The notes beneath the pieces are model-generated. The model had not been told where the DNA came from and did no database searches. It saw only the letters and a program-made list of their open reading frames with translations. A stretch of DNA of 64,000 bases from Pseudovirgaria hyperparasitica (lineage: Eukaryota), in NCBI GenBank assembly GCA_010093815.1, contig ML996573.1, one strand, 5' to 3'. Position numbers and translations under genes: made by a program. Below, piece after piece: positions 10,435-53,907 of this stretch (position 1 is its first letter; every line of letters starts with the position of its first letter).

Positions 10435-13400
10435 TCACTCATCGTCTGATTCCATGACACTACTACCACCGCCTTGGTTTGCGAACCACGTCAAAGCCGA
10501 TGGCTTCTCATCAAACTCGATAGTGACCTCCTCCTCGGCTGCAGGGTCTTCAGGCCGATTAATGATAACATTGTTCATCTCCTTTTCGCCTTCCTTGCCA
10601 GCAACTGTCTCAATGCTCGAAGATGTCAATTTCTCATCAGGTGTGTCCGACTCAGCTGCCATCGGCGCCTTGTCAAGCCCGATGGAAAAGTTGTCCATCA
10701 AATCTACCAGGTCATCAAATGCCGAGGGCGTTCTTGAAGTATTTGCCAGAACGTTTGAGGTTGGTGTTGTTGAGTAAACACTGGGAAAGGCATATTCCCT
10801 CTGCTGCATAAACACCTCGTTATCCACCTCGTTCTTGTAGGAAGCTTGGAGTGCAGCCTCAACATCCTCCTGTGGTTCCCAGTGATCTCGCTCCGGTGCC
10901 ACAGAGGATTTACTATGACCTTGTGCTACGCGGAAGCTATGCACTCTATTCTTCACCGCGTTGATGATTCCGGCATTCTTTTGTGTGAATTGGTCGATAT
11001 CCATGCTCTGTCCAACTCTCTCGGCATCTTCAAACAGCTCCAACTTATCGCCGCGATGAGTGATACCCTGAGCAGTCTCAAGATCATCACTGATAATAGT
11101 TGGTGTCGCCTGCATCTTGTTATGTGGATGACGACGTCTTGCACCCTGGTGTGCTGTCACCGACGCCTGTATTCTATGCTGACCAGCGGTCGCAATGAGT
11201 CCCATTTCTTTGTAGAATATCCATGGAAAGCTCATCAGTGGCATGCGTATGTCCGAGGTCTTCTCATCTGATAGGTCGGTTGGATCGGAGACTGCATTAG
11301 CTTTCCGCTCGGCAAGAGCCATTTCCACTTCCCTCGCAGTTACTGTATACATGGCTGCAACAAATACGCCAAGCTGCTCAAAGCTTTTTCCACCTGCTTT
11401 CTCGATGCAACGTTCTGCATAGTGTTGTCTTAGCGCACTAATGCTGCTACCGATTTCTTCGTGGAATTGGTAATCTTTACCAGCGTTGTGGGACAAAACA
11501 AATGTTGACCACACTTCGAACTCAGTAGCGATAGCATACTGTGCCATAAGTCTACGAATCGCTTTATCGTATCCATTTTTGATGTCAGCGGCGTCTTTGA
11601 GTATGCTCTCAGTCAAGCTATATGCTTCGAGTACCCTTTTGTCAAAAGGCTCATCGTAAAAGGGATGAAAGTCCTCTCGCTGGACCTGGTCGTATAGTTG
11701 ACCCAGGATCTTTTTTGATGTATAGACACTCTTGTTGCCAAATTTAGGCCTCATAAAGTGTGGCTTACTTGGAGGTCGAAGCTCTCTGTTCATCCTGGCA
11801 GGAATACCTGATTTCGGGAAGTCGACAGCACAGGAGTGAAGCTCCGCCAGCTTTAGGCAGGTTTTGCTCCTGATTCCATCTTCAAGCCGATCAGCCTGAG
11901 CTAAATGTGCTGTAGCAATAGTACCAAGTTGATCATTCCGGATGTAGTTTACGAAGAATGACGACATGTCATCAATGGTAACCTTGTTTTTCTCAATCCC
12001 TTTCGGAGCAGTGAAATCCATTGGGGGATGATTTATCTCCTGAGGTATGAGCTCTTCATCCCAAATGATCATGTAGTCGTCACCATCGAGGTCACCACCA
12101 GAACACATATTCGCGATATCACGGTCGCCAGTTTGGGGTAAAACCACGACGTTCTTCAGATGATGGAGCGCGGCTTTGTCTCTAGCCACGACAATGCGAA
12201 TATCTCCAGGGTGTAATGAAGGATTTCGTGCAAGAACACAGACGCCCTCAATGACCTTGTAGCTATTTTCATGTTTGATTTGAAGGAAGATCTCTGGTAA
12301 ACTGGCTAATCTGTCATTCCGCGTTGTGTTTAGATCGTTTGATTGTTGGTCCTCGTAGTGACCTTGCAGTTCACCTGTCTCGTCCACACATCCGAACAGG
12401 AATGCACTCTTGGTGACCTTTATCTGTGCCTTCTCTTTGAGATTCTTCAATCTCCAAGTCCTCCACAGCTGTAGTACAGACAGAGTAAATGGGTCTTTAT
12501 ACTGCATGAAGCCGTCTCGGATGATGCTTGCCAGTGTCGTGGTCATATGATTGAAGTCAATAAAGTGTTCTAGTTGATCCAGGGCCGTTGACTCCTCGAT
12601 CATTGCCTCGTCCAGCTTTTCAAGTTCTGTCTTCATTTTGTTGACAAAGACACTGTCTGGAACTCCAAGATTTGAGAGAACCATGATGACTTGGCGGTTG
12701 AGCTGAGCTGTCACATAGTCGGAGACCCTGATGATCTCCAGCCCCGAGTGATTAGCAGGAAACTTGTACTGGCTACGTCGGATGACGATCTCCTTCGTTT
12801 TCAGACCGTGGGCCAACACCAGGACACCTTTGCAGCCTCCTAGACGGAATTGGACGAGGGAAGGTGGATCCCCATCGCAGTCTAGTGGAACACCCCAGTC
12901 TGTGGCTACCGCCATGAGAAGATACCTTGAGATCTTTCCAACTCCATCTGAGAATGTGTAGCCATTCCGCTGGATATCTTCCGCAGTACTGACCTCAATT
13001 GTGCCGCAGTTCATCGCACGAGTCGTAGAGAAGCACTGACCGATGCGTGCACAGTACTTTGCAACAACCTTGATGTCTTCAAAATCACCCATGTGCTCGC
13101 GCATCTTATCGGGATATACCTGATCATTGGGCGGCGAGAAAAAGTAGGCGCCATTCTCTCGGAATTGAGAGTTTCCGAATGCAAGAAACTCATAATGTCG
13201 ACCTCCAATGTCTATTCCGTTCGTCATCGTGAGCTTCACACGGTTGAGAATTGCTGTAATTTTGCTGTCGTCCGTACTCTGCAACTTTCCCTCTGGGATC
13301 TCATCCATGAACTTTACCCGCAAGAATCTGTCCGAGAACTCTGAGTATTGTCTCACCACACGGTTCGAGATCTCTTGCGTAGGAGTTCCAATGTACATTG

Positions 13401-15186
13401 TCGTGGGGGTAATTATGGCATTGTGCATGAAAACATAATGTGAAGCTAGTTTCGGGGCTGATTTCCTCGGTACTGGAAGGCTGAAGATACTCATCGGATT
13501 GTAAAATCGAGAGTTAGCATCAGCCACTTTCACAAGAAGAGCTTTGGCGGTGGCCTTTGGCAACCCACTGATCTGCACAAGAAAATCTCGATCGATGTTA
13601 TGGTCGCACAGCTTGCCCTTACTGATGCAGACTTCCAACTGGTAGCGTACTGAGAAGTCTAAGGGGGCGAGGTCAGACCCGAGGTGCTCCAATGCCGTAA
13701 GCTGGAGGTTACTGGCGCTCTCAGCTTCCTCAAGCAGGCTCCAAAATTTTGATTCTTGTCTCGGGTGAAGAATTCCATCTGGATTAGGGATGATTCTAAC
13801 GTTGTAGTCGGTAAGCGCACGGAGAATGGGTTTGTAGTTGACGAGGTCATTGGCGCTTCGTTCAAATACGAGTCTGTAAGTGGTCCAGCGGCCTGAGTAG
13901 ATTGATGTTAGGTCTTATTCACGTGTCTTACACTTAGGATGCACTGACCAGTGTCGATGATAGAACTATTTCTGTGTAGTGTCGTGGGACTTCGCATCAT
14001 CTCTCGCCGCTCTTTATCGTGTTCAATGTGGGTCTGTCGAATCCATGTCTGCCAGTCGCTCCATCTTCTTCCGTCGCCCTCTGCAAAGCTCTCTTCTACG
14101 TTAGGGTTTCGGCGAAAGTATTTGGGTGGCGATTCCAGGTGTATACGTAGAGCGCGATCATCTGAGTCGCAACGTTCCTCGTATATCTGCTCGAGTTGAA
14201 ACAAAGGTATTCGGAACTTGAAGTCTGTCTGTTGACTGGAGGGGTTTTTGATCTGGTCTTCGGTCTCTGTGTATGTCATGGTAAGAGAGAAGGACACCTC
14301 CACAAACTTCAAGTACAAATCCAATTTGAACGTTATCTTTGACTTCTGGCCAGGCTTCACAGTTCTCATTACCATCATCGATCTTTCGTCGAACATGAAG
14401 CCGAACTCGACAGACTTCGCTGATAGTGTCTAAGTTTGTGTTTGTCAGCGCATGTGAAGACGCTATGCATATCTGGATTGTACTTACCATCTTCTCTGGG
14501 TACCGCTGATTGGGATCGATCGGGCTCGGTTGCGTCCGGGAATTTGTCCGCATCAAATCGATGCCTAAGGAGTGCCCAGGTAGAATTCGTTTTTTCTCAT
14601 TCCAGAATGGACGGTTCGGCGGAGGGCTATATCGAGGGTTAAAAACACCTTCACTTAAGTCGGTAGCAACTCACCAAAACGTTACAATTGCTGTTCTTGG
14701 AGAGCTCTCGACCTCTATACGTGATATGTGTCCATACGCATGGAACATACGATAAATAGTCTTAGGAACTGCGGGCTGGGGCACGTTCGTTACCCTCACC
14801 TTCACCTCTTCATTCTGCTGCCATTCGTAACGAGGTGCCCGAATTCCCCCATTGTGTCTGGCCCAATCGCTCTGTCTCACAGCTTCTCTTTGCGCTTCGG
14901 GCGATCTGACGCGCCGGTCATTGAGACTTTGTACAATGCTTGTATCTCGTTCTCTGGATGCAATGGCAGGCTTTGAAGGTGGAGATAGACTAGAAAGCCC
15001 GGCTACTGCGCATTGCTGTGGGGAATCGCGTGCTGAGGGTGCCGTATTAAATGCTTGCGCTCTGTCCACGGCGATCTGTGGCTCAGAATCGAGAAGCCAT
15101 GACATTACGGATGGGCTCTGCGTGTAGCTCATTTTTTGTGGCTTGGATGGCCCAGAACTCGATTGCGGTCTGCTCGCGGACGACAT
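10435..15186 (-). CDS. sad-1: Eukaryotic RNA-dependent RNA polymerase, SAD-1/Rdp1-like clade; 3 introns in the 5' part
   Basis: Catalytic CSGGDLDGDDY, plus RNPSLHPGD, FSDGVGKIS, QFRLGGCKG, FLAFGNSQFRENGAYFF and VRYQLEVCIS; RRM-like N-terminal exon (VKVRVTNVP..GHISRIEV). The clade call rests on my recall of motifs. Confidence 0.88.
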
Positions 15187-37685: not shown

Positions 37686-38303
37686 CTGGAAGACTCGACC
37701 ACGCTGTCGCATCCCAAACTTCCCCTCTTTGTCTCGAAGTCTACAACCACAAAAACCACAAAGAAGCTCTTATGATGCCTGATTGGTCGCGACTCCTCGC
37801 GCCCGCCGTCACGTGCATCTGCTAAACTTCATCATAGAACCTAACCACATCTCCACCATCTTCTTCCACCATCAACCTAATCTCATCCTCATCCTAGACA
37901 TCTCTTCTCGATCTCGATAATATGGCTTTCACCCAGTTCTCGCGTACCTCTTGTCCTGCGTCCATCTGGTTAAGCAGATGTAGCAGAAGTACACTCCAAG
38001 AACCGAGCCACCTCTACTCACATTTGGCCATGCTCACGTTGATCATCCTTCTCAATCCTCTCATAGGCGCATCCAACTCGCAGAGACATGCTACTTGATT
38101 CAGATCTCGTCGATATCTTGCATCTAACCCCCGCTCATTTCTGACCCCCTCCTCAAGCCTCCCACTCAGTCTTGCAATGATGGTTCGATCGTGCTGAACC
38201 ACCCGTACTATTATTCATCTCATATTGCCCATGTCTCTCTCGCACCTTCAATTAGCGCTGAATACTAACACCACAGATTACTGCCGCCACAGCAGCTAAC
38301 GGC

Positions 38304-40550
38304 ATGCCTCTTCCACAGATCACTGCCCCAACCAAAGGAGACATCACGGAAACCCACGAACACCACCTGGAAAGCTGGTTTGCTCAAATCGCTGACTATC
38401 GCAAGTCGGTCCGCTCGTCCATCGACTCGCAAGCAGCTTCGTATGCTCAGCCTGAGTCTGTCCATACAAAGGAAGGACCGTATACATACCAGCCGCTTAA
38501 CCAGCACGTGGACGAAATTCGTCTCGTTCGCATACTCCCAAATATTGACCGCAGCAGACCTTTACAGTGTGAAATTCATCATAGACCGCTCCAAAGCTCT
38601 GAACATTTTGCGCTCTCGTACTGCTGGGGCAAGGGACCGCCAACGAACGCCATCATTCTTGATGGCCATCGCTTCTCCGTATCTGACAACCTTTATTCGG
38701 CAATGCTGGAGCTTCGTCATCCAGAACAGGCCATAAATGTGTGGATCGACGCCATTTGCATGAATCAAGACGATTTGGAAGAGAGAAGCAGAGAAGTACT
38801 ACGGATGCGCAGCATTTATGCCGCAGCTCAGCTGGTTGTCATCTGGCTAGGGCAGGAAGAGTTTGACACCAAACGGGCCTTTGATCATTTAAAGGCACTT
38901 TCAAAACGACATAGGTATATCAAGTCTATGCCTCCAGTCACATGGACCAGTCTTGCAATAAGAATGGCGCGACTTCCTCTCACTCTAGCATATGCCTCGT
39001 GCCATGTCGCAGCAGAGTCTCCTCTCGCTGCTGGTTTCGCGTTATACTACACCTTCTCACTGCTGACCGAAGCTTCTTCCAACTGGACAGGGACTAGGAT
39101 ATTCCAATGGCTCGTCAGACTAGGTTCCATTGTCGCGTTATACAAGATCTTGAGGAGGTGGATAACAACGACACTCGCAGAAGACGATCGCATCCCAAAA
39201 GTCGACGTGTCCATCAACGACATCGCTGCTCTACGAGACTTCTTCGAATGCGCATGGTTCGACCGGACATGGATTATTCAAGAGCTGGCCGTTGCCCGAC
39301 GAGCAAGATTCGTCCGCGGCACCCAGGGCATAGACAGCGAATCCATCACAAGCGCATGCGCCGAGATACGACGCAACATAGCAAATAGCAGAGATAGTCC
39401 TTACATGCACACCAAGTATCAACGCTTCACCCACCTTGGCCGCTTTCAAGACATCCGGCACCACGAACACGGACCAATCTTCCAACGCTGGGGTCGATAC
39501 CAACAAAGCTTGTTGTATCTGCTCAGCGCCTTCTCGCCCATGGACTCAACCGACCCTCGCGACAAGGTATACGGCCTCCTAGGCCTATCCCAAGAAGACC
39601 GTCCCGGCACTCCAAACCCTACCCGCGTCGTCCCAGACTACACACGTCCCGTCGTCGACATCTACACCGACGTCGCCCGCTCCCTCATCCAGCGCACCCA
39701 CACCCTCGACATCCTCTCCGCCTGTCTCGGCTCCGGCAGCGTCTCCGGCCTCCCATCTTGGGTCCCAGACTGGACAGCCCCAATCCACCGTCCCATCCAC
39801 GTCCTGAACCAAAACTCCCCTCCCTACACCATCCCACTCCACACCCCACCCTACTCCTTCCCCAGCCCAACCCGCCTCCTCGTCCAAGGCTTCGTCCTCG
39901 GCACAATCTCCAAAGAACACACCGCCCTCCGCGCCCTCCAACTCCCCTCACCCTACACCCCCCACCTTCCCCCCATCACCACCCTCACCACAAACACCCT
40001 CTTCTTCCTCCTCCTCCACTACACCTCCCGTCTCCTCCCCTACATCGCCCTCCTCCCCGGCCTCACCTCACTACTCCGCCGCGCCGCCACCGCCGCCACC
40101 CCACTCGGCCTCGCCCACCTCTTCACATTCGCCTCCGACGTCCACGCCAGCCTCCTCGACAGCGGCACAGAATACATCTTCCCCAAATCATGGGCCGCTC
40201 TACAGGCTACATACACCGCCCCGCTGCACCCGCACCACACACTCGTGAGTAGAGGCTTCGCCGTAGATGTTGCGTCTGGTCTGAGCGTAGTGCCCGGGCT
40301 ATGTACGAGCTATGCGGCTGATGTCTCAGCGGGCGATTTGCTGGTCATGTTGCTTGGTGCGAAACAGCCGTGTATTGTGCGGGAGGTGGAGATGGGGTCT
40401 GATGCTGGGGGTGGTGATTGGGGGCGTTGTTATGTGTTTGTTGGGCCGGCTGAGTGTGGGGGTTTCTGGATGCATGCCGTTGCGTGGAGGAAGGTCCGGG
40501 AGGCCTTTGCGCTGGGTCGGATCCGGGTGCTTGACTTTGAGTTGTGTTGA
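38304..40550 (+). CDS. HET-domain (heterokaryon incompatibility, HET-6-like) protein, intronless
   Basis: HET blocks FALSYCWG, VSDNLYSAM, WIDAICMNQDDLEERSREVLRMRSIY..VVIWLG and WFDRTWIIQEL; downstream TDPRDKVYGLLGL and LPSWVPDW. Confidence 0.92.
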   Translation: MPLPQITAPTKGDITETHEHHLESWFAQIADYRKSVRSSIDSQAASYAQPESVHTKEGPYTYQPLNQHVDEIRLVRILPNIDRSRPLQCEIHHRPLQSSEHFALSYCWGKGPPTNAIILDGHRFSVSDNLYSAMLELRHPEQAINVWIDAICMNQDDLEERSREVLRMRSIYAAAQLVVIWLGQEEFDTKRAFDHLKALSKRHRYIKSMPPVTWTSLAIRMARLPLTLAYASCHVAAESPLAAGFALYYTFSLLTEASSNWTGTRIFQWLVRLGSIVALYKILRRWITTTLAEDDRIPKVDVSINDIAALRDFFECAWFDRTWIIQELAVARRARFVRGTQGIDSESITSACAEIRRNIANSRDSPYMHTKYQRFTHLGRFQDIRHHEHGPIFQRWGRYQQSLLYLLSAFSPMDSTDPRDKVYGLLGLSQEDRPGTPNPTRVVPDYTRPVVDIYTDVARSLIQRTHTLDILSACLGSGSVSGLPSWVPDWTAPIHRPIHVLNQNSPPYTIPLHTPPYSFPSPTRLLVQGFVLGTISKEHTALRALQLPSPYTPHLPPITTLTTNTLFFLLLHYTSRLLPYIALLPGLTSLLRRAATAATPLGLAHLFTFASDVHASLLDSGTEYIFPKSWAALQATYTAPLHPHHTLVSRGFAVDVASGLSVVPGLCTSYAADVSAGDLLVMLLGAKQPCIVREVEMGSDAGGGDWGRCYVFVGPAECGGFWMHAVAWRKVREAFALGRIRVLDFELC

Positions 40551-41067: not shown

Positions 41068-43362
41068 CTACAGTCCCTCGTCACTATCCTCTTCTTCCGC
41101 ATGGCCTCCAAACTCCACCTCGAACCTCCCCGGCTCACTCGTGACGTGCCCAAACACCTCCCTAGCCCACCCATGTAGCATAAACCCCCACGCACTCTTT
41201 CCCTCGCTCACGAGCGCGTTACCTGCGTGCACAAAGGCAATCACAATGGAGCGGGCGCAGCCAAACGGCACGATGGCGTGGGTCCGGTCCAGTGTCGGAA
41301 AGGTCGTCGGAGGCGAAGACGGCGGCGAGGGAAACCCGAAATCCAGTGGGGGCGATGAAGCAGGCGTTTCCGGTGGCGGAAAATCAATACCCCATCCAAA
41401 GTTCCGCAGTACTGACAGCGCTGCGAATGTCATGAGCATTGTGGATGAAGGAGACGTCGGGTGTGACGCAGCTTCGTGCATGAGGGTCCGCGCCAGGAAT
41501 GCGGGTGCGAGGCGAGGATACGTTGTTTGCCTTTCGCGTGGATATGTGTCCTCGAGCTCATGGATGCTTGTCTTGACATCCTCCATGTTCAACCTCCCTT
41601 TGGTCTCCGCATGTTCGTACCTGTCCAGTACTGCCGTCCTCATTTCCAGTACGTCCTCGCACACCGCACTCTCACGCATGCACAGTTCGCAAATACACTT
41701 GAACCCCCACGTCTTAGCCAGCCTCTCGCGACGCACTGACACGTCTGGATCCAGTACGCAGTAGGAAATAGTGATCTGTTCGCCCGGTGCGATATCCCGG
41801 ATGGCGCGAAGCATGATCGCGTTACCAACAAAGGAAACTGTAGCGTTGGGCGCACACGCATGGTTCGCATAACTAGCCTGTGGCCACACCCCGACGATCA
41901 GGCCCTTTGCGGTCTGTGCATCAGGGTCAATAAAATGTTCTCCAGACGGCGTGCCGCCGTTCTTGAGCACGATATTGTGGATGAGGAAGGTGTCGAGCAC
42001 CGGGTGTCCGTCAACGCGGTGAGTAGGTGCACATGCGGGTGCGTAGGATCCGGCGTAGAGATTGAGAAATTTCGTGGCCAGACAGGGGTTCTTTCTCAGT
42101 GTCTGGACGATGCTGATAAAGAGCGGTGGGCCATCGGATTCAGTCCAGGTCCTGGACTGTAGGTCCATAAGCACATGGCCGGCGGAGGCGGCGCTGGGGC
42201 TGGAGGTCGCGATTGGATTGTCGAGAAGGATGAGGCCACCTGGAGCGAAGGCTTGAACGGCGATAAGACCTCGACCAGCTCCTTCGACAGGACGCCCTGT
42301 GACGGCAGAGTGATATTGGGCGGGACAATAGGAAGGGTTGGCGAAGAGGTAGGCAAAGTCGTATATCCCGGAAGACTCGCGGAGATGCGTCAAAACGACT
42401 GATAGAAAGTGACGAGCAGATTCGTTGGTAGGATAGGAGGTAAGAAGTGTTTCAAGTTGCGCGCGAGACTTCATATATTGGCCAAGGACCAGGTAGGCTT
42501 TCGCGGAACGGAACAGAGCTTTTTCATCAACGGCAGAGTGCCCAAGGACGGAGAAACAGTCACGAAGGGCGTTTTCGTAATAGCCAGCGGAGAGGTAGGC
42601 TTGAGCTCGATTACGGTGTAGGTCGAGTGTGGTCGGAAGGAAGCTTGAGCGTCTAAAAGAGAGACCGTTTGTGTAGGCCCGTATTGCACCAGCATAGTCT
42701 CTATCTTTCATGGCCTCGTTTCCGATCATCTTCCACGTATCTGCATCGTCACGCACCGGCTTTCGTAGACCTTGAGGTATGCTGCTGTGTTTAGGGGGTA
42801 GTAGAAGCAGGTCTGAGACGTGATCTATCCTGATCATAGGCAGTTGGCCACAAGAGATCTCGTAATACGGATGCTTTATTGCGACATAGTCCCACCTTCG
42901 AAGGTATTGATTCGCTTCGATCGAAATGTCTTGATGCATAAGCATAAAGTGATGAGCATCGCCTGCGCTGTCTTCTATCACAGTAATAAGATTGGATCCA
43001 GTGAAAGTGGGATCACAGGCGATCCTGCCTAGAAGGACGCGTCCCTCGTTGTGGTCTTCGGCCTTGAGAGATTTGATTCCGATTGAGGTGAGTTCGGAGA
43101 GCGGCTTTGTGCAGGGATAGTAATGTTTGTGTATGATATATGGACGAAAACTGAACTTGTCGATATCTTGAGCCGGACCAGAGATGATGCTCGCAGCCTT
43201 TTCATCCTTGTATGCTTCAAACTCCTCGATCACTCTCTTTCTATCTTGACGAATCAACTTCTGTCCTTGTAGCTCTTCGGAGCGCCTGGCAGCCAAAAGC
43301 TCTTCCTGAAGCTTCTCTTCACATTGTGCGACGAAAGACGAGTGTAAAAGCCTCGGTGGCAT
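41068..43362 (-). CDS. TPR + SET domain protein (SMYD-like lysine methyltransferase)
   Basis: Three TPRs (WKMIGNEAM..AIRAYT, HRNRAQAYL..ALRDC, EKALFRSAKA); SET motifs GRGLIA, ANHACAPN and EQITISY; post-SET FKCICELC. Confidence 0.88.
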   Translation of the reverse strand: MPPRLLHSSFVAQCEEKLQEELLAARRSEELQGQKLIRQDRKRVIEEFEAYKDEKAASIISGPAQDIDKFSFRPYIIHKHYYPCTKPLSELTSIGIKSLKAEDHNEGRVLLGRIACDPTFTGSNLITVIEDSAGDAHHFMLMHQDISIEANQYLRRWDYVAIKHPYYEISCGQLPMIRIDHVSDLLLLPPKHSSIPQGLRKPVRDDADTWKMIGNEAMKDRDYAGAIRAYTNGLSFRRSSFLPTTLDLHRNRAQAYLSAGYYENALRDCFSVLGHSAVDEKALFRSAKAYLVLGQYMKSRAQLETLLTSYPTNESARHFLSVVLTHLRESSGIYDFAYLFANPSYCPAQYHSAVTGRPVEGAGRGLIAVQAFAPGGLILLDNPIATSSPSAASAGHVLMDLQSRTWTESDGPPLFISIVQTLRKNPCLATKFLNLYAGSYAPACAPTHRVDGHPVLDTFLIHNIVLKNGGTPSGEHFIDPDAQTAKGLIVGVWPQASYANHACAPNATVSFVGNAIMLRAIRDIAPGEQITISYCVLDPDVSVRRERLAKTWGFKCICELCMRESAVCEDVLEMRTAVLDRYEHAETKGRLNMEDVKTSIHELEDTYPRERQTTYPRLAPAFLARTLMHEAASHPTSPSSTMLMTFAALSVLRNFGWGIDFPPPETPASSPPLDFGFPSPPSSPPTTFPTLDRTHAIVPFGCARSIVIAFVHAGNALVSEGKSAWGFMLHGWAREVFGHVTSEPGRFEVEFGGHAEEEDSDEGL

Positions 43363-43864: not shown

Positions 43865-45016
43865 TTAGCAAACATCCTCAACTTCAACTTCACCGCCATC
43901 CCGTGGTCCCAGGTCAGAACGTAAGGCTCGGTTGAACAACTCGCGCAGCATCTCAAAACAAATGCCTGAGATGGCTGGATCGTATCGTCCTTTGCTCAGC
44001 TCATCGCGGATGAACGCATCTGATCGGGGTCAGTGAAAGTCTAGGAGCTCATCAAACAATGTAAACTTACGCTGTGCCCAAGCAATCTCGTAGAAGCTAA
44101 AATTCACTCCTTTGTCGTGAAGTGTTTTCCGGATCAAATCACGACCCGCAGGCGGAACGTGGTTGTCCATCTTCCCGAATATCTGTGTTTCGCCGATCAA
44201 CCAACCTTGAAATGCAGAACATTCAGAGCAGAAGGGGCTTGGGTTCATACCATGACAAGTTCACCCTTGATATCCCCCGCTCTCTCCAAGCTGTCGTCGT
44301 TCTTGCCTTCTCCCAGACTATGCGAGTGAATATCCGTGGCGAAATAACACACAGCGGCACTGACTCTTCTGTCAAGCGCACAACGATACGCTAGATGGCC
44401 ACCCAGACACATCCCTGTAGCTCCAATCTTATGTGGAATCAGAGTCCGGTACTTTTTGGTTAAGTAGAATACATACCTTGCCTGTACACGTCGGTAGAGA
44501 TAAGAGAGCATCAACAGAGAGTGTAGCATCCTCATCGTAGGCTGATACCTTCTTGGTAATCTTCCATTCGTTGCCTTTGTCAGTGCCGGGCCCATCGTAA
44601 GCCAAAGCTTCAGGGCCAGTGAACTCGTGGTATGATGAAGGAGCAGCGACAATGTAGCCCTGTGAAGCGATTTGACGAGCGAAGCGCTGAACAGGACCGG
44701 TAACTATCACCCATTCATGTCAACATGCAGAGGTTCAAAGAACGGGAGAGTAGGGTGCATGGCTTCTGTAAAAGGCCTTTTACGTCCTTCTTAGTCGTTC
44801 TTAATCCAAACGTACCTTGATATATCTCACTAAACACGACTACACCCGGGAATTTTGCCTTCGGGTAGTTTGCAATCGTGGGATGAAATATGTATATACC
44901 TATGGTCATATTAATTAGGATTGTAATGCGGAACAGGATCTATGGGCGTGTATCATCATACGCATGTCGCCGCCAGCCTTTGTGGCGACATCTTTGTGAG
45001 TCTCCTGTATGAGCAT
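43865..45016 (-). CDS. Dienelactone hydrolase family protein; about 5 introns
   Basis: Spliced GVVVFSEIYQVTGPV, nucleophile motif GATGMCLGG, DNHVP and AQHAFIRDELSKGRYDP. Confidence 0.9.
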
Positions 45017-45668
45017 TGTAGTGTGCAGAGACGAATGTCTATAGAAATACGATAAATGTCCAGATCCCTCTTGTACGGGACAATGTTTTGTCAAAAGCTC
45101 AGCTCAGCTCACTATGTATGTAAGTTTTGAATTGCTGCATGCGGTATGATGAGGGAAAAGGTGGGGGGGTTTTTAGGATGCGTGCCCCACATTTGAACGA
45201 AAGCATCAAGTAGACCGAGTAAAGGGAAACATTTTTATTGTCGAGAAGATCTCAAAAGAATATAGCACACTAAGCTACGCCGATAGATCGCCTAAGCATA
45301 GACTCGCATGCTACGAGCTTGAGTCGGCCAGCTCCTTATATCAAAGATTTTGTGCACCGCGTAAGCTATGCATTTTACGTCTTCCATTCGTCTCTTCCCT
45401 ATCATTTGGAACAGTACCACCCTCAACTTAGCTGTGCTACATACATAAAGCTAATAGACCTATGGTATATCTCGAGATCACTGGGTAGGTGCAATTATCA
45501 GGTCATCGGCAGGGCATATATCCAGTCCGTGGAGCACGTCAACGCGCAAAAGCTCACTTTTCCACCATGATAGATCTTTTTTGGTGTTTGGGGTTGGCCG
45601 TCCCTGAGCAGGAGAGCCTGGCCTGCTCTTAATTTTCTTTTAGCAGATAATGCTGTTGTTCTGGCTCC

Positions 45669-48415
45669 TCAGGACTTGATTTGTTGGTAGAACAAGATGT
45701 ATGCAACCTTGTTGTCCTTGTATCCGCTCTTGTCCTTTGGAGTGTGCTTCCCGGTGGTGCTCGGCGTGGCAGTACCATTGGCTACGCCGGTCCACTTGCG
45801 TCCGGGTTGGGCGTTGGCATCCTTCCATCCTCCCTCTTCTGCCCGTTCCTGCTCCTCACCAAGACCCTCAAAAAGGTTGCGATGCCTGCTTTGGTCGCGC
45901 TTGTGCTGTTCCAAGGCCGTAGCAAGGAGCTTGGGGTCTTCTTCGCTCCCTCCTTCCGCGACATCGTCGCTTCTGATACGTCGGATGATGGTGTCGTCAA
46001 TGCGAATCCATTCTCGTCCTTCTTGGCGGCGTACGTCGACGGTGTAATGACCTCCACTGGCATTCTTTCCGTGGTGATAGACTACACTGATCAAACGATA
46101 CTTTGGAGGACCGCCATGCGCTGCAAGCCCAGCACGCTTGCTGGGTGGGAACACTTCTTTGGGAACCTCAAGCTCCAGGGGATATCCGACCTTTTTCCAG
46201 ATCTTTTGCGTACCCCCGGCATTGTCGTACTGGAAGCGCTTTAAGTGAAGGATGAGCACCGGTGGCAGGCTGTCGATAAAGACTTGTTTGGTAGCCGACT
46301 TTCCTGGTCCGCGTGGAGAACTGAAATCACCGTGCAGTGTTTCCGGTTGAGTCAGGCTCCTCAAAGCATCGACGATGTTGCCAACATGAGGAGCCCCAAT
46401 GTCAAGCTGGAGCGGCTGATATGGCTCGAGAGTAACAGATGTTTTGGCACCTGGGACTCGGAGCTCTGAACGGAGTTTACCTCCAAATATTTTGGTAATG
46501 GGTGAGTCCAGATCGATGCTCCCGGAGGAGCGTGTGACTGCTGATTTCTGCTTGGGTCCGACTTCCAGCCAGCCTGCATCTGTTGAAGATGTGCTCGGAG
46601 GTGAGCTTACGTTGGTGTCCACAGCTTCGCCATTCGCGGGCAATCTCCCCATCACCTGCGCAATCTCATCGTGCAATCCAGTCAATAAGAAGCCCAGGAA
46701 CTCCTCTGCGTCCTGCTGATGTCCTCGGGGCATGTGAGCAAAGCTTGCTAGCCTTCGAATGACCTCGTATACATATTCTGGGGTGAAAGCCTCCCCGTAT
46801 TGTTCAAGTTCGGTATCTTTGAGCCGCATGCGGAGTTGTTCTACGGAAGTGGCTGAATCGATAACTTGGTATTCGCGGAGGAACATGATCCTAAACATAT
46901 TAGCCATAGTAAATATCGCAGAACAAAATACTCACATCGCGTCGATCAAAGGAGTGTCTGACTTGAAGCTGTGCGCAGCTCGCTTGCCGACCTGATCAAT
47001 GAAATCATAAAAGGGTACACAGAAAACTAAAGCTTGCAGAATCTAGTGCACGTTAGTTGCATATATCGCAAAAGGTTCACCATGCTTACAGAATTCATAT
47101 AGCACATATTGCCGGTATTCACGAGGCCGCGGGGCTCAAGAAAGGCAACTTTGTTGTCGGATTCGACGGTGTAGGCAGTGAGAACGTCAGAGATAGTGGC
47201 GTTCTTATTAATGGGAAATCCGTTCGATCCTGAAGCACCGTTCGCTGCTGCAGGCGATGCCTGAACAGCAGCTGCGGGATTCTTGAGACGTACTAGCTCA
47301 GCCCAGGATTTGGGCGCCGCAGGAGGTGAAGAAACTGTAGCTGCCTGCTCGCTCCCTACGACAGTGGATTGAGATGCAGCGAAGTCTGTCGTCGGCTCTG
47401 TAGAGCTGTCGGTAGCGTTTCCATTGACATTGGGACGGGGGGACTTTTGACTTTGTGGCACAGCAGGCCGCAAGGGTACTATTGGCACAGCAGGTATTGT
47501 TGAACTCCGGGTATGTGATTTGACAGTCGGAGTCTTGTCACTCTCGGGGGCTGTTGCCGAAGAAGGTGGCGTGGACGGAGCGATAGATTCGGTCTGTGAG
47601 ATGGTCTCGATCGAAAGCGTCTGATGTGCATCTTGCTCTGGAACCGCGTCTGTATGGACGGCATCCTGCCCCTGTGCTGGGGTAGCTGTCGAAACTATTC
47701 GCTCTCCAGAAGATAAGGAAGATATTTTGATTTGCTCTGTGATGGGCACTACGTCACGGCGCAGTCTCCTCCGTGGAGCCCGTGAAGGAAACTGTTCACC
47801 TTTATTGGAATACCATGGCAAAGGAGCCTGGAATGGCATTCTTCGCCCTTCGACAGATGGACTTGGTGTCTGTGTGTTCGGCTGCGCGGTAGACTGAGAA
47901 GGCGTTGTTACAGAACCTGAGGACGAGTCTGGAGGAGGAGGAGGCGTCGTAGCAGTTGTAGTTTCCGTCGTTGGTGTAGGTGGTGAAGCAGGCGCTTGCG
48001 ATGAGACTGAGGGAGTCTGAGGAGTTGGCGTAGCGGGTGGCGGAGGTTGAGAGGCTTGCTGAATTGTGGGCGGAGTATACGAAGGAGCGACCGGAGGAGT
48101 ACTCATCATGCCGCGATTCAAAGACGGCGAGTGTAGGTGCGGGTGACTTGAGACTACGACCGGGCCTCCATGTGGTTGTGGTTGTGGCTGATATTGTCGA
48201 GGAGGCATCGTGTACTGATGCTGTTGCTGGTATGGTGCATACCATTGCGGTTGCGCGTAAGGGTGAGGTTGTCCGAGGTAGGGCGCTGGAGGGTAGCCAG
48301 CATACATGTTCGGAGGCATGGGTGAGTGCGATTGCTGTTGATACTGGTAGTGATAGTCGCTCTGCCTCCTATGCGGATGCATGGGAATGGCAGGCGGCAT
48401 GTGAGGACCCGGCAT
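45669..48415 (-). CDS. UBP3: Ubiquitin-specific protease Ubp3/USP10-like; 2 introns
   Basis: Cys box PRGLVNTGNMCYMNS, QQDAEEFL, LPPVLILHLKRF, His box YHHGKNASGGHY and AYILFY; P/Q-rich N-terminus with PKSWAEL. Confidence 0.9.
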
Positions 48416-49398
48416 GTTGAAAGAGAATGTTGATAGTCGCCAGTCACCGCAGGCTGTCGCGAAGCCGGCGAGACGTGAGGCCACTGATATGACGATTGTC
48501 GGCGATCCGAGTCGGAATAGGTTTCACTGTCGGCTTGGAATGCTCATGTAGCAAGCAGCGTTTGGCTGGCTGTGTCGCGTGTTTGTTCAGGCTAAGCAGC
48601 GTGATGGTGAAGGGCGCGATGTTAATGGAGTCGAGTAGAAGCCCCGCGAGATAGCGTCGCAGCAGAGAGTACGCGAGGCATGGTCAGACTGCCATGCCCT
48701 TGATATGGATGAAGGATAGAAAAGAGGTGAAAAGGGCGAGAGGAAGGGCGCGATGAAAGTGAAGGTTGCGCGTTGGGAGTTTGTGGTGACGGCAGCGAAG
48801 GCACAATTCTACGGGCACGGACCACCCCCAAGATCCTCACTAACAACCGTTATGCGCAGCGCAGTAGGTAAACATTTTATTAGAGACTAGGTAGGTAATA
48901 GTCGCTTACGGAGCATTCTATCTATTCTACGCATTGGCTCTCCGCTACGGAAGAGAAGACTGGGTCACTAAAAGGTTACTTCAACGCATTTGATACGGCA
49001 CAGCATACACAATACATTCAGTACCTAGTACTGGGATGGAATAACATATTCTTCCCAAAACAAAGGATGAGCAGTTTGCTGACTTTGCTCGGTCGACAAG
49101 ACTTTCAACCAATCATGGAGATGCTTGGCGCACGGTCCTTGGTTCTGCTTATGTCATCGCGACTTCTCCCAGGTCCCCGCCGCCTCCTCGGAGCAGAGAA
49201 GCGTGAAATGAATGGATGACTCCCGAGTTGTGATGATAACCCACCTTCGGGCGGGCTCATGTAGCATATCCACACCAAGCAATTTCATTCTCTCCATCTA
49301 CTCAGTACTAGAGGCTTGCTGTTGCCTGGTGTACAGCTTCCCTCCTACTACGCGTTCGGGTCTGCACGTCATCAGGGCTTCAACGCAGAAGTACCGTC

Positions 49399-51739
49399 AT
49401 GTCGAACAACCCTCCGACTGCTATCTCTGCAACAAAGGCTGGTGGTAATAGCGTGCCGCAGCTCTCGCCTTTGCAGTCACAGCCCACTTCCTCTTCGACT
49501 GGTGACGGCGTTGGTCAAAGACGTAGCGGAGGTACTGGCAGTTTTGGAGCAGGTGCTTCGTCGCGATTGTCGCCGTCCCCACGAAACGCCCAGGCTACTC
49601 GGAAGCAACATAAGACCTCAAAGCGGTCTCGGCTCGTTGATGACGATGCCATCGTGCAATCTGTACGTCGAGAGCGATCTCGTAGTCTCATTGCAAGCGT
49701 ACTGATGTCTGGTAGGCCGCTATGCGCTCTACAAACAGTCGAAAGGGACAGACGTCCATTACCCATCTCATGAACTTCTCGCTTCCTCCTCGACCACAAT
49801 CACATCACTCATACGGCAGTCATCCACATGTACGACGCACCACGAGGTGGGGCCTGGGGTCTGGTTATCACGCGGTCGACAAAGCGAGGTATGTTTTGTA
49901 TTATGTTCTTTCGAGATAATGACTGACTGTCCGTCCCCAAGATATATACATGCCAATTACCGTTTCATTGTTGATCCTCGTGGCGATTACCATACACAGA
50001 GCATGGATGCTGACGTCCACCTTGATTGGAACAATGTATTACAAGTCCTGGCTTCAGCCCAATCCCAGGCAGCCTCATGCCCCATTTGCCTAGGAGTTCC
50101 GGTCGCTCCCCGAATGGCCAAATGTGGCCACATCTTCTGTCTTCCTTGTCTTCTCCGCTACATGCATTCCGAGGATGGCACTCCCGCGGCCGAGAAAAGA
50201 GCAAGGTGGAAAAAGTGTCCTATATGTGAAGACAGCATCTACGTTAACGAAACACGTCCGGTGCGATGGTACTATGGCCAAGAAGCCGGTCATCTCCAAG
50301 AGGGGAGTGATGTGGTACTCCGCCTAGTCACGCGTGCCACTGGCAGTACACTGGCTCTGCCGCGCGATGGTGCAGACGCCCTTGGGAAAGACGAGGACGT
50401 TCCATGGTACGTGGCCGCTGAAGTTATGGACTACGCCAGAATAATCAAAGGTAGCGAATCCTACATCAGTTCACAGTATGACAGTGACATACAAGAGCTG
50501 GAGAAGCAGGAAAAAGAAGATGAAGTGATGTTTGGCGAGGACAATGTTGAGTGGATGCGGAAAGCCATTCGCATGCTACGGGAATCGAAGGAAAAGCATG
50601 AGGGTATTGGCAATCCTCCAAATTTAGCGAAGCCGGCCGAGCCCAAGTCGAGGAAGCCACCTATCGTATATCATCAATCTGAAGGGCCTGAGATGTATCA
50701 CCTTCAGACATCCGAAACTCGCGGTCAGACCTCAGCGGAGCAAACAGCGGCAACAGAGGCAAAATCGATAATATCGACGGATGCCAGTCCAGACTCGGAC
50801 TCCACTCCGACAGGCCCAAAAGCATTGAATATTCATCCTTCAGCCAAGCCGAGCAACATATCTCGCCTCCACCAACAGCACAGTTCCAACCAAACACCTT
50901 CTGAATACTTCTTCTACCATGCCCTCTTACATTACTACCTATCACCTCTTGATATTCGAATCCTCAAGTCGGCGTTTGGGTCGTTTTCTTCCTTCCCCTC
51001 CACAATCCTTCCCCGAATAGAGCACATATCAACTGGTCACGTTGTTGACGATGAATTGCGGAAACGAACCAAGTATCTGGCCCATATACCATACGGCTGC
51101 GAAGTTGCCTTTCTCGAATGCGATTGGACTGATACAGTCAGTCCAGAGGTACTAGAGAAATTCAAGCCTGAGATTGAGCGCCGTCGTAAGAAGAATCAAG
51201 AAAAGGTCAACAGAGAAGAGAAGTCGCGTATCAAGGCGGAGCGAGACGAAACAGATCGCTACCGTCGTACGAAGCGACCGAGCTTCTCTAACAACCAATT
51301 TTCTGTTGATGACTTTGCACCACTGGTGTCTGCATCCCCAGGTGGCACCATATTGTCTGATGATGCAGAGGCTCACATGGATTCAGCCTCTACATCGCCG
51401 CCATGGCCCAACCGCCGCAATCAAGGTCAAGGATCCTCGTTTGCATCACTTGCATCACCCTCAACAAGTCCGTCTACAAGCCGAACAGTCTGGGGCACAG
51501 CAGCGATAGCCCCAAAATCACCGGTACTTTACTCACGTGCAGAAGGCGAACATGACGATGGGTGGCTGCAGGATTGGGAGCGAGACTTGCTTGATAACGA
51601 TGACTTGACCGCACAAGTACAGGCTCTGAGCATGGCAGGAGATGGTGCAAGTCAAAGAACAGGCAACGGAGGTATGGGAAAGAAGGGTAAGAAGAAGAAG
51701 ATCACACTGATGAGTACGAATGTGAGGAGAGGTGCGTAG
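49399..51739 (+). CDS. MAG2: RING E3 ligase Mag2/RNF10-like; 2 introns (~49663-49716, ~49889-49941)
   Basis: HLMNFSLPPR, DKARYIHANYRF, C3HC4 RING CPICL..KCGHIFCLPC..WKKCPIC, LRKRTKYLAHIP..FLECD and C-terminal KKGKKKKITLMST. Confidence 0.88.
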
Positions 51740-52198
51740 GATCGAAGTGTACGGACGAGCAGGCTGAGATGAGCGATTGAGCCACCAGCATAGAGAGACG
51801 AGAAGACATTGTGCATTTTCAGCGAGCCCTGAATTTAGTTACGGATAGCGTTGTTTATAGCCTGCGACCATATATATTTGAGGTTTTCCAATCCAGTGCT
51901 CCTATTCGCCAGACGTATGACCATTTGCATCCCGATCGGGAAAGTAGGGCCAGAAGAGGGAAGCACGGACCGTTCCGAGGCAATTACCCCAGGGACACGA
52001 AATTTGGGCAGGTCAACACCATCATCTCTACTCACATCGTGCATCCTCACCACAATTGGGCTTGCGTCTTTCGCTGCAGCCGCCGTTCTTGCTCATTCAG
52101 TTGCATGCGATGCTTTGATTGCGAACTTTGTATTATTGAGACCCATTTTCATCTGTAGTTTTGCGAGGATACTCAACCCCTGAGGCGAGAGGAAAAAG

Positions 52199-53907
52199 AT
52201 GTCGCAACGCGTTACTCGCTCCCAAACGGGGGCAACACCCAGGTACGTGTCCAGCTATTGGTCTGTGAGCCTGACTATTGCTGACATGGTATCGAATAGG
52301 AAATCACTCGCTCCTGGGTTCGTTGAAACCCCTGGTCGACAGCGCAAGCCGCGCCGATCTGGTGATGGCGACAACTCGGACTCAGATAGCAGCGCACTTA
52401 CGCGGTCGGTCGAACTCGAGCCAAAGCCTCAGAATGGAACGGCTAATGGTCATGCGAAATCGAACGGAACGGCCAATGGTCATGCGAAGCCAAGCAAAGA
52501 GCCCATGACTGGCGACCTCACACTATATAAGCATGAAGAGTTCGAGTTTGGAGGTCCGTATGGTCCACTTGGTATCATGATTGGATTCCCGGTCCTCATG
52601 TACTATATGTGGATTGGGGCAACGTACTACGACGGTGGTTTCCCAAGACCTTTGGCAGGACAGACCTACGTCGAGTTCTTCCAGCATATGGGCCACCTGA
52701 TCTACAAAGGTGCATTTCCACACGCAAAGGCGTGGGCAATCTACTGGGTATTCTTCCTGGTGGAGTGCGTCTTCTATGTCATCATGCCTGGTATCTGGAC
52801 CAAGGGCAAGAGACTGCCTCACTTGGGTAACGAGCCTCTCGATTACTACTGCTCTGGGCCATGGTCATGGTGGGCAACGCAGATTATTGCGGTTGGCCTC
52901 CATTTCTCTGGTCTCTTCCCGCTTTACACTCTGATCGACGAGTTTGGTCCTCTTATGTCGGTTGCAATTCTTTCTGGTATCGGTGTATCGTTTATTGCCT
53001 ACTGGTCTGCTCTATGGCGTGGTGCGCAAACTCGTATGTCGGGATACTTCATCTACGACTTCTTCATGGGGGCCGAGTTGAACCCGCGCATAAGCGTGAT
53101 TGACTTCAAGATGTTCTTCGAAGTGCGCATCCCCTGGTACATCCTATTCTTGACGACTGCAGGTGTCATAGCTCGGCAGTATGAGGACTATGGATACGTT
53201 TCTGGTGAAGCGTGGTTCTTGCTTCTTGCGCATTGGCTCTACGCAAATGCATGCTCCAAGGGCGAAGAGCTTATTGTCACGTCTTGGGACATGTACTTTG
53301 AGAAATGGGGCTTTATGCTGATTTTCTGGAATCTTGCTGGTGTACCACTCAGCTACTGCCACTCGTCCATCTACCTTGCCAACCACCCTCCTTCGCAGGT
53401 TGCGTGGAGCAAGCCGGCGCTGGTGATTTTCTTTGCCACGTATCTGTTCGCCTACTGGGTCTGGGACACGACAAACTCGCAGAAGAACATGTTCCGGTGT
53501 GAGGAACGTGGCGGGGCTCCCCAGCGCAAGGCTTTCCCTCAACTGCCGTACAAGTCGATCAAGAACCCGGTGACGATCAAGACCAAGACTGGGGATTCGA
53601 TTTTGTGTGACGGATGGTATGGCAAGGCGCGGAAGATTCACTATACGTGCGACTTGTACTTTGCAATCACATGGGGATTGATCACCGGGTTCAACAGTCC
53701 GTTTCCGTGGTTCTACAGTGTCTTCTTTGCGGGGATGATCATACATCGTGCGTGGAGAGACATTGTTCGCTGCAGAGAGAAGTATGGCGAGGCATGGCTG
53801 GAGTATGAGAGAAGGGTTCCGTACTTGTTCATCCCGGTGAGTAGCATGAACAGCCGAAGACAACCAATAGAAGGACCAAGCTAACGAAGTTCTAGTACGT
53901 TATTTAA
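52199..53907 (+). CDS. ERG4: Delta24(24(1))-sterol reductase (ERG4/ERG24 family); introns 52243-52299 and 53837-53895
   Basis: [62 protein letters not shown] and VPYLFIPYVI. Confidence 0.92.

Follow-up and report, generated by a model that had tools for sequence, protein, structure and literature searches.

Head-to-head genes for a USP10/Ubp3-type deubiquitinase and an RNF10/Mag2-type RING ligase form a conserved divergent pair in filamentous ascomycetes

A stretch of 64,000 nucleotides from contig ML996573.1 of the fungus Pseudovirgaria hyperparasitica (assembly GCA_010093815.1), here called the window, contains a gene for a USP10/Ubp3-type deubiquitinase and a gene for an RNF10/Mag2-type RING E3 ubiquitin ligase, arranged head to head. 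The ligase is of a kind that ubiquitylates stalled small ribosomal subunits, and the deubiquitinase most likely removes that ubiquitin. Comparison with related loci showed that this head-to-head adjacency was retained across five classes of Pezizomycotina, and that the two genes have moved as a unit. The arrangement was kept in most of the sampled filamentous ascomycetes, which suggests joint control of both genes but is not proof of it. In the available text of PMC12008924, RNF10 and USP10 are described as antagonists in the regulation of uS3/uS5 ubiquitylation, decay of the 40S subunit is said to follow excess RNF10 or loss of USP10, and Mag2 is given as the yeast orthologue of RNF10, with the same lysine of uS3 as its target; the activities of Mag2/RNF10 and USP10 on 40S marks, on which an earlier reading of the window (the sequence-only reading) had drawn, are thus stated in that source. 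The same reading had taken the linkage of the two genes to be undescribed, and a full-text literature search found no earlier report of it.

The gene pair and its transcripts

P. hyperparasitica belongs to the order Acrospermales of the Dothideomycetes. The listing of open reading frames (ORFs), combined with splicing, gave the gene models below, in which the coding sequences include the stop codon; transcript contigs are described after the list.

45669..48415 (-), coding sequence of the USP10/Ubp3-type deubiquitinase, 884 aa
48415-47090, 47042-46936 and 46890-45669 (-), deubiquitinase exons
47089-47043 and 46935-46891 (-), deubiquitinase introns
48416..49398, intergenic region between both ATGs, 983 bp
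49399..51739 (+), coding sequence of the RNF10/Mag2-type RING E3, 744 aa
49399-49662, 49716-49888 and 49942-51739 (+), RING gene exons
49663-49715 and 49889-49941 (+), RING gene introns
45223..48759 (-), deubiquitinase transcript contig, with a 5' leader of at least 344 nt beyond the ATG
49231..51868 (+), RING gene transcript contigs, with a 5' leader of at least 159-168 nt
48760..49230, stretch of ~471 bp without coverage from the contigs of either gene, a candidate shared core-promoter/upstream activating sequence region

The models confirmed the divergence of a UBP3-like ATG (48415, -) and a MAG2-like ATG (49399, +) from 983 bp, as the sequence-only reading had claimed, and at this distance the two genes form a divergent pair in the sense of head-to-head genes with starts less than ~1 kb apart. 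The deposited P. hyperparasitica proteins match the models in size (884 aa, P0121, and 744 aa, P0001), with 100% identity in the queried exons; the 884-aa protein carries the name 'cysteine proteinase'.

Evidence of transcription came from two public runs of one sample in one study, which were not recorded as RNA but contained intron-less contigs. All four introns, with ends GT..AG or CT..AC, were skipped exactly in the contigs of both runs, indicating that the contigs are transcript-derived and that both genes were transcribed in that sample. The deubiquitinase contig of the second run ends at 48703, where it continues into adapter letters, and the RING contigs start at 49231 and 49240. Contig depths were left out of any ranking of the two genes. 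Depth was 0 in the bin 48864-49117, the two mRNAs are separated by ~471 bp at most, and the uncovered stretch holds a CCAAT at 49109 and ATGCGCAGCGCAG at 48852.

Conservation of the head-to-head linkage

A profile of the RING protein was run against metagenome contigs, giving 566 pattern matches, 464 of them confirmed. The best 80 loci were taken with flanks of up to 10 kb, and were collapsed into 60 groups at 97% or higher amino acid identity of the RING protein. Identity to the query was 48% or higher in all 80 loci, which therefore sample only part of the Pezizomycotina. In tblastn searches with the window proteins, the deubiquitinase was detected in 38 of the 80 loci, always upstream of the RING gene and on the opposite strand. 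Where a group had 4 kb or more of sequence upstream, a divergent deubiquitinase was present there in 26 of 31 cases, and five further positive groups had shorter upstream flanks. Across the positive loci the estimated spacing between the two ATGs was 451-2038 bp, where the longest spacers might hide a small intervening gene.

The best named deubiquitinase matches of the positive loci were in Pleosporales (Paraphoma, up to 82%), Helotiales (Cadophora, 90%, and Lachnellula, 80%), Eurotiales (Thermoascus, 91%), Lecanoromycetes (Dirinaria, 71-73%, and also Lecanora and Caloplaca) and Candelariomycetes (Candelaria/Candelina, 57-59%). The linked loci span five classes of Pezizomycotina ('leotiomyceta'), namely Dothideo-, Leotio-, Eurotio-, Lecanoro- and Candelariomycetes. 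The locus tags of the two genes are adjacent in Kalmusia and in Pleosporales sp. CAS-2024a, and among the 18 species common to the lists of relatives of both proteins, 17 had the deubiquitinase and the RING gene on a contig of the same size, the exception being Melanomma.

The downstream neighbour of the RING gene served as a comparator for the decay of gene order:

52199..53884 (+), ERG4/ERG24-family sterol reductase gene, PF01222, E 2.6e-137
52241-52297, ERG4/ERG24 intron, with the joint of the transcript contig at 52240/52298

Of 37 groups whose downstream flank was 2.5 kb or longer, 14 kept the adjacency of RNF10 and ERG24 (downstream, same strand). Fitch parsimony on one tree of the RING protein, with 31 tips informative for both adjacencies, gave 2 changes for USP-RNF10 versus 8 for RNF10-ERG24. 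Following the sequence-only reading, adjacency and orientation were in this way set against the decay of neighbouring pairs, and the linkage was found to decay more slowly than RNF10-ERG24, the sole measurable comparator, an outcome in favour of that reading; the genes for the HET-domain protein, the sugar transporter, the fungal transcription factor and an 892-aa ORF were found as neighbours in 0 of the 80 loci, and the SET/TPR gene in 1 of 80. In four groups (the L019 group, L024, L053 and the L075 group) the order is ERG24(-) USP(-) RNF10(+), indicating that the pair was inverted as a block.

Identity of the deubiquitinase and the RING ligase

Pfam assigned UCH (PF00443, E 1.9e-34) to the deubiquitinase, in agreement with the Pfam entry of the deposited protein. 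The USP (peptidase C19) catalytic domain is C-terminal, and the N-terminal ~440 aa are of low complexity. The catalytic Cys box NTGNMCYMNS lies at the end of exon 1 (Cys codon 47102-47104) and the His box GGHYTVDV in exon 3, and both are intact in the spliced product. The 442-aa N-terminal exon matched no Pfam family and no PDB chain at E values up to 10, and so gave no match to a Bre5/G3BP-binding peptide. The 120 best longer relatives of the deubiquitinase are all fungal; those of Xylographa, Pycnora, Talaromyces islandicus, Drepanopeziza and Rhynchosporium are named 'ubiquitin carboxyl-terminal hydrolase 10', and a Diplodia relative is named 'hydrolase 3'. Among named Atlas clusters from outside the fungi, USP10 of Chordata is the closest (score 0.89, TM 0.44-0.45), a lead-level match. 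A PDB sequence search with the deubiquitinase returned generic USP matches (USP15, USP2 and others) and no USP10 or Ubp3 chain.

Eight RING-type Pfam families were found on the RING gene, including PF00097 (E 2.7e-07) and PF13923. The finger itself was placed using coordinates computed from the spliced model:

50078..50227 (+), C3HC4 RING finger, residues 192-241

Its eight metal ligands (C192, C195, C207, H209, C212, C215, C238 and C241) are invariant across the 23 aligned relatives. The RING protein could be aligned end to end with 22-23 hand-chosen diverse representatives, at identities down to 26%, and the alignment contains conserved blocks before the RING (SIxHLxNF and NANYRFIV) and after it (YFYQA..YLxPLDIRILK, KYLxHLP, FLECDW and TVWGT); the idea that these non-RING blocks may define RNF10/Mag2 comes from our inspection of the alignment and has no curated rule behind it. 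Cluster representatives matching the RING protein numbered 1259 at E<=1e-10 and 396 at E<=1e-30. One Alternaria relative bears the name 'RING finger protein P8B7.23-like', after P8B7.23 of Schizosaccharomyces pombe. The nearest Atlas clusters include 'E3 ubiquitin-protein ligase RNF10' of Chordata (TM 0.48, 405 aligned) and 'RING finger protein 10' of Streptophyta, both lead-level. The PDB sequence search gave generic RING matches (BRCA1, TRIM) and no RNF10 chain.

Database names and Atlas rows were treated as leads and not as proof of orthology. Taken with the architecture of the proteins, the family-wide alignment and the nearest named clusters, they indicate that the two genes are very probably orthologous to Ubp3/USP10 and Mag2/RNF10. 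The UBP3-like and MAG2-like identities proposed in the sequence-only reading thereby gained support from Pfam domains, from the names of relatives, from the alignment and from the nearest clusters.

Possible promoter sharing or passive retention

We lean towards regarding the two genes as an old, conserved divergent pair held together by shared or interlocked promoters. If the promoters of the deubiquitinase and the RING ligase were shared or interlocked, the pair would be kept together, and transcription of the ligase would be coordinated with that of the hydrolase most likely to undo its uS3/uS5 marks on 40S subunits. The ligase:hydrolase dosage ratio would then be buffered at the transcriptional level, and could be fine-tuned by features specific to each mRNA, such as the structured leader that the deubiquitinase mRNA carries at its 5' end. 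The rheostat proposed in the sequence-only reading, where a shared bidirectional promoter could fix or switch the E3:DUB ratio, is a conjecture that goes beyond these results.

Candidate promoter elements were observed in the intergenic regions of Pleosporales-like loci (L002, L006, L009, L022, L027, L038 and L058), consisting of a conserved block of ~37 bp (…GGGTCATnGTATCAGnACGACATGAGCGCAGC) and a GGGGGACC block. A ATGAGCGCAG block was found only in Pleosporales-like loci. In the window, positions 48852-48864 (ATGCGCAGCGCAG) bear a loose resemblance to the Pleosporales-like block.

Several observations weigh against promoter sharing. A promoter motif common to all classes was not found, the top k-mers being the arms of the 5'-leader hairpin, and conserved blocks of the intergenic region occur in Pleosporales-like loci only. 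The transcript contigs come from one RNA sample only and define neither true transcript ends or transcription start sites nor levels. Retention was compared with one other adjacency only, and the Sordariomycetes, the early-diverging Pezizomycotina, the Saccharomycotina and the Basidiomycota lie outside the 80-locus sample. Class labels drawn from identities below 65% are tentative, and locus L074 was placed differently by its two genes.

The pair is also broken in several places, and this involves the neighbour beyond the deubiquitinase:

44245..44703 (-), dienelactone-hydrolase-family exon, PF01738, E 4.4e-07

The deubiquitinase was absent next to the RING gene in 5 of the 31 informative groups (L051/52, L057, L060, L063/64/68 and L073). 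These five groups fall in two places of the tree, a Dothideomycete clade, whose member L073 is 100% identical to a protein of Aureobasidium pullulans, and L060, which is nested among loci of lichen fungi. The dienelactone-hydrolase gene lies directly upstream of the RING gene in the L063 group and in L073, and likewise in L054, so that in this Aureobasidium-like clade the deubiquitinase appears to have left an otherwise identical locus. The locus tags of the two genes are 61 apart in Sphaceloma murrayae (same contig) and 43 apart in Trypethelium subeluteriae. Myriangium duriaei and Bogoriella megaspora carry the two genes on separate contigs, and those of Melanomma are on contigs of differing size. 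Between ubp3 (SPBP8B7.21) and the RING homologue P8B7.23 of S. pombe there is one ORF number, and the absence of the suffix 'c' from both names places the genes on one strand, not in head-to-head order. UBP3 (YER151C) and MAG2 of Saccharomyces cerevisiae are unlinked, being on different chromosomes, as are human RNF10 and USP10. The linkage is dispensable in several lineages.

Passive retention of the pair is a serious rival to promoter sharing, and the literature on gene order supports both. A short divergent spacer leaves little room for a breakpoint that spares both promoters, in which case the relation between the two enzymes would be incidental and co-regulation would not have been selected; we consider this possible rather than probable. 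PMC2871058, in the text available, describes divergence and close spacing as typical of conserved fungal pairs, and its Table 1 contains many pairs common to Pezizomycotina and Taphrinomycotina without an evident functional link; yet conserved divergent pairs are there also enriched for functionally related genes, and USP10 and RNF10 act on the same marks. Passive retention would fit the repeated loss of the pair at no evident cost, the lack of a cross-class promoter element in the k-mer scan and the intergenic blocks, and the position of the pair in a loosely conserved block of four genes with the dienelactone hydrolase and ERG24. On the other hand, several loci have an estimated spacing as wide as 1.5-2 kb, so that room for a breakpoint exists, and the RNF10-ERG24 spacer is shorter (459 bp in the window) yet this adjacency decays faster, although those two genes are co-directional and do not provide a like-for-like control.

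In 17 of the 80 loci the dienelactone-hydrolase gene lay no more than 10 kb from RNF10. Together with the deubiquitinase, the RING gene and ERG4/ERG24 (window 44245-53884) it makes up the block of four genes, whose order and orientation vary across classes; this neighbourhood was seen in L033, L009, L066, L067, L071, L073 and L063.

A structured leader before the deubiquitinase start codon

A hairpin of 55-60 nt, ending 15-30 nt before the deubiquitinase AUG, was found in 14 dereplicated Dothideomycete loci. The copies, and the more diverged copy in the window, are located as follows.

48424..48489 (-), window copy of the hairpin, 14-75 nt upstream of the AUG, diverged/degraded
L002:3652-3719 (-), hairpin copy
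L004:9076-9139 (-), hairpin copy
L006:9110-9177 (-), hairpin copy
L009:8260-8327 (-), hairpin copy
L018:9235-9303 (-), hairpin copy
L022:504-568 (-), hairpin copy
L025:3872-3938 (-), hairpin copy
L027:681-747 (-), hairpin copy
L033:9116-9183 (-), hairpin copy
L034:893-960 (-), hairpin copy
L038:4973-5038 (-), hairpin copy
L046:1045-1109 (-), hairpin copy
L058:3319-3383 (-), hairpin copy
L061:1600-1665 (-), hairpin copy

The outer stem GUUGCC...GGCAAC is invariant in the relatives, where the window has GUGGCC...AUCAAC. The inner helices vary with compensation, with double changes in 4 of the 14 consensus pairs. In the alignment 93.3% of the cells are paired, versus 23-55% with the partners slid, and the covariation score is 0.252 versus 0.154 in shuffles, with 0 of 500 shuffles reaching 0.252. 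In four loci the fold z-score lies between -2.4 and -5.7, and in the window it is -1.75. The deubiquitinase-sense strand is favoured as the carrier of the hairpin by its G-U pairs and by energies that are mostly lower. A covariance model of the hairpin scored 40 bits in the window (E 7e-09); beyond its source sequences and their duplicates it found no copies, and the matches were in Dothideomycete loci only, with none in the other classes. Rfam was searched with positions 48300-49500 (E<=1), and the only match, the snoRNA sR10, was at chance level (15 bits versus a gathering score of 45) and was rejected.

Different short hairpins were observed right before the deubiquitinase AUG in other classes, for example CCGAUC..GAUCGG with UUGGxA..UCCCAA, and GCCCCCUCUGGGGGC, at the following sites.

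L019:8460-8570 (-), Leotiomycete-like hairpin site
L048:8700-8810 (-), Leotiomycete-like hairpin site
L055:1297-1407 (-), Leotiomycete-like hairpin site
L053:6077-6187 (-), Leotiomycete-like hairpin site
L066:7843-7953 (-), Lecanoromycete-like hairpin site
L067:6543-6653 (-), Lecanoromycete-like hairpin site
L080:8387-8497 (-), Lecanoromycete-like hairpin site

Structure in the leader before the deubiquitinase AUG may therefore be recurrent even where the sequence differs. The 110 nt before this AUG had a mean fold z of -1.80 (23 anchors), versus -0.21 (15 anchors) for the RING leaders, a comparison in which the anchors are phylogenetically non-independent and from which 6 coding-looking anchors were dropped. 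The hairpin could be a translational control element or, less likely, its two arms could be paired RFX-like half-sites in the DNA.

The RING leaders gave no conserved upstream open reading frames (uORFs) in fungi, a complete uORF being present in 5 of 14 distinct groups (19 anchored loci). A minimal AUG-stop uORF (ATGTAG) lies at 49259-49264 (+) in the 5' leader of the RING gene in the window, inside the transcript contig, and is not conserved.

These features bear on two further readings. One is a self-tuning module of 40S quality control, in which one promoter input and a hairpin before the hydrolase AUG would tie hydrolase synthesis to scanning capacity, so that initiation stress would shift the ratio of E3 to deubiquitinase toward marking and removal of 40S; the lineages in which the pair is split, namely Aureobasidium and relatives, Myriangiales and Trypetheliales, would have been rewired. 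We regard this module as unlikely. The other is that the coupling is post-transcriptional or physical, through a protein complex or through tuning of the deubiquitinase by its structured 5' leader, with the adjacency as a by-product. The conserved, covarying hairpin before the deubiquitinase AUG, the other hairpins that Leotiomycete and Lecanoromycete loci have at this position, and the greater structure of the deubiquitinase leader relative to the RING leader all agree with such a coupling, and human RNF10 is described, in the source text available, as translationally controlled via its 5' untranslated region (UTR), so that translational tuning of this pathway has a precedent. Post-transcriptional coupling alone, however, leaves the kept adjacency and orientation unexplained, the hairpin model matches Dothideomycete loci only and the window copy is weak; we regard this reading as quite unlikely.

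Misassignment, in which one gene would be a paralogue and not a functional Ubp3/USP10 or Mag2/RNF10, so that the reading of the pair as writer and eraser would fail, finds some room in the generic USP and RING matches and the missing Bre5/G3BP-binding peptide match of the PDB searches, but it is very improbable in view of the names given by independent annotators, the full-length family alignment, the RNF10 and USP10 identities of the nearest named clusters, and a long disordered N-terminus with a C-terminal USP domain that fits the USP10/Ubp3 architecture.

Other genes in the window

The window also encodes the three proteins below. Their genes show no synteny with the pair in the related loci, apart from the SET/TPR gene in 1 of 80.

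10435-13914 (-), RNA-dependent RNA polymerase, PF05183, E 8e-193
38262-40550 (+), HET-domain protein
41068-43362 (-), SET and TPR protein

Relation to known systems

The preferred reading, an old divergent pair held together by its promoters, can be compared with several systems in which the same families or the same gene arrangement occur. In S. cerevisiae, Mag2, which acts in 18S non-functional rRNA decay, is the RNF10 orthologue, and Ubp3, of Ubp3-Bre5, is tied to the mono-ubiquitin mark of Rps3 by the title of a 2017 paper, cited in PMC12700985, which reportedly concerns the balancing of Rps3 mono-ubiquitination by Hel2 and Ubp3. Unlike in the window, the two yeast genes are unlinked, UBP3 being YER151C and MAG2 lying on another chromosome. 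In S. pombe, ubp3 (SPBP8B7.21) and the RING gene SPBP8B7.23 belong to the same two families and lie two ORF numbers apart on one cosmid-sized stretch, but, judged from the gene names, with one gene between them and on the same strand. This proximity suggests a linkage older than the divergence of Taphrinomycotina and Pezizomycotina.

The human RNF10-USP10 system of initiation ribosome quality control (iRQC) involves the same two families, with a ligase that marks 40S uS3/uS5, a hydrolase that removes the marks, and a balance between them that decides 40S decay (PMC12008924, in the text available). It differs in that human RNF10 is described as tuned by uORFs in its 5' UTR, whereas the fungal RING leaders are without conserved uORFs, and in that the human genes lie on different chromosomes. 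The divergent pairs of related fungal genes such as RAD16/RAD7 and H2A/H2B (Davila Lopez et al. 2010, PMC2871058, in the text available) are similar in being head to head with a short spacer, in their conservation across classes or subphyla and in the membership of both partners in one pathway; unlike these, the USP10-RNF10 partners are antagonists and not subunits of one complex. The USP10-RNF10 pair is not in the main-text table of PMC2871058, and its supplements may list it. Conserved divergent pairs of functionally related genes are a known phenomenon, of which USP10-RNF10 is a further example.

Significance of the linkage

The retention of this pair bears on how the two enzymes are related in fungi. 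Gene order is seldom conserved in filamentous ascomycetes, so the keeping of the pair across five classes provides independent evolutionary evidence that fungal Ubp3/USP10 and Mag2/RNF10 function as a couple; for yeast, the case for such a couple has so far been assembled only by indirect means. If the linkage were passive, it would reflect ordinary promoter entanglement. The distribution of the pair offers a natural experiment, in which linked lineages (Pleosporales, Eurotiales and Helotiales) can be compared with unlinked ones (Aureobasidium, Sphaceloma/Myriangium and Trypethelium) for co-expression and for uS3 ubiquitin. The structured leader of the hydrolase would offer a handle on the ligase:hydrolase ratio under initiation stress, and such control would be a counterpart to the way uORFs tune human RNF10.

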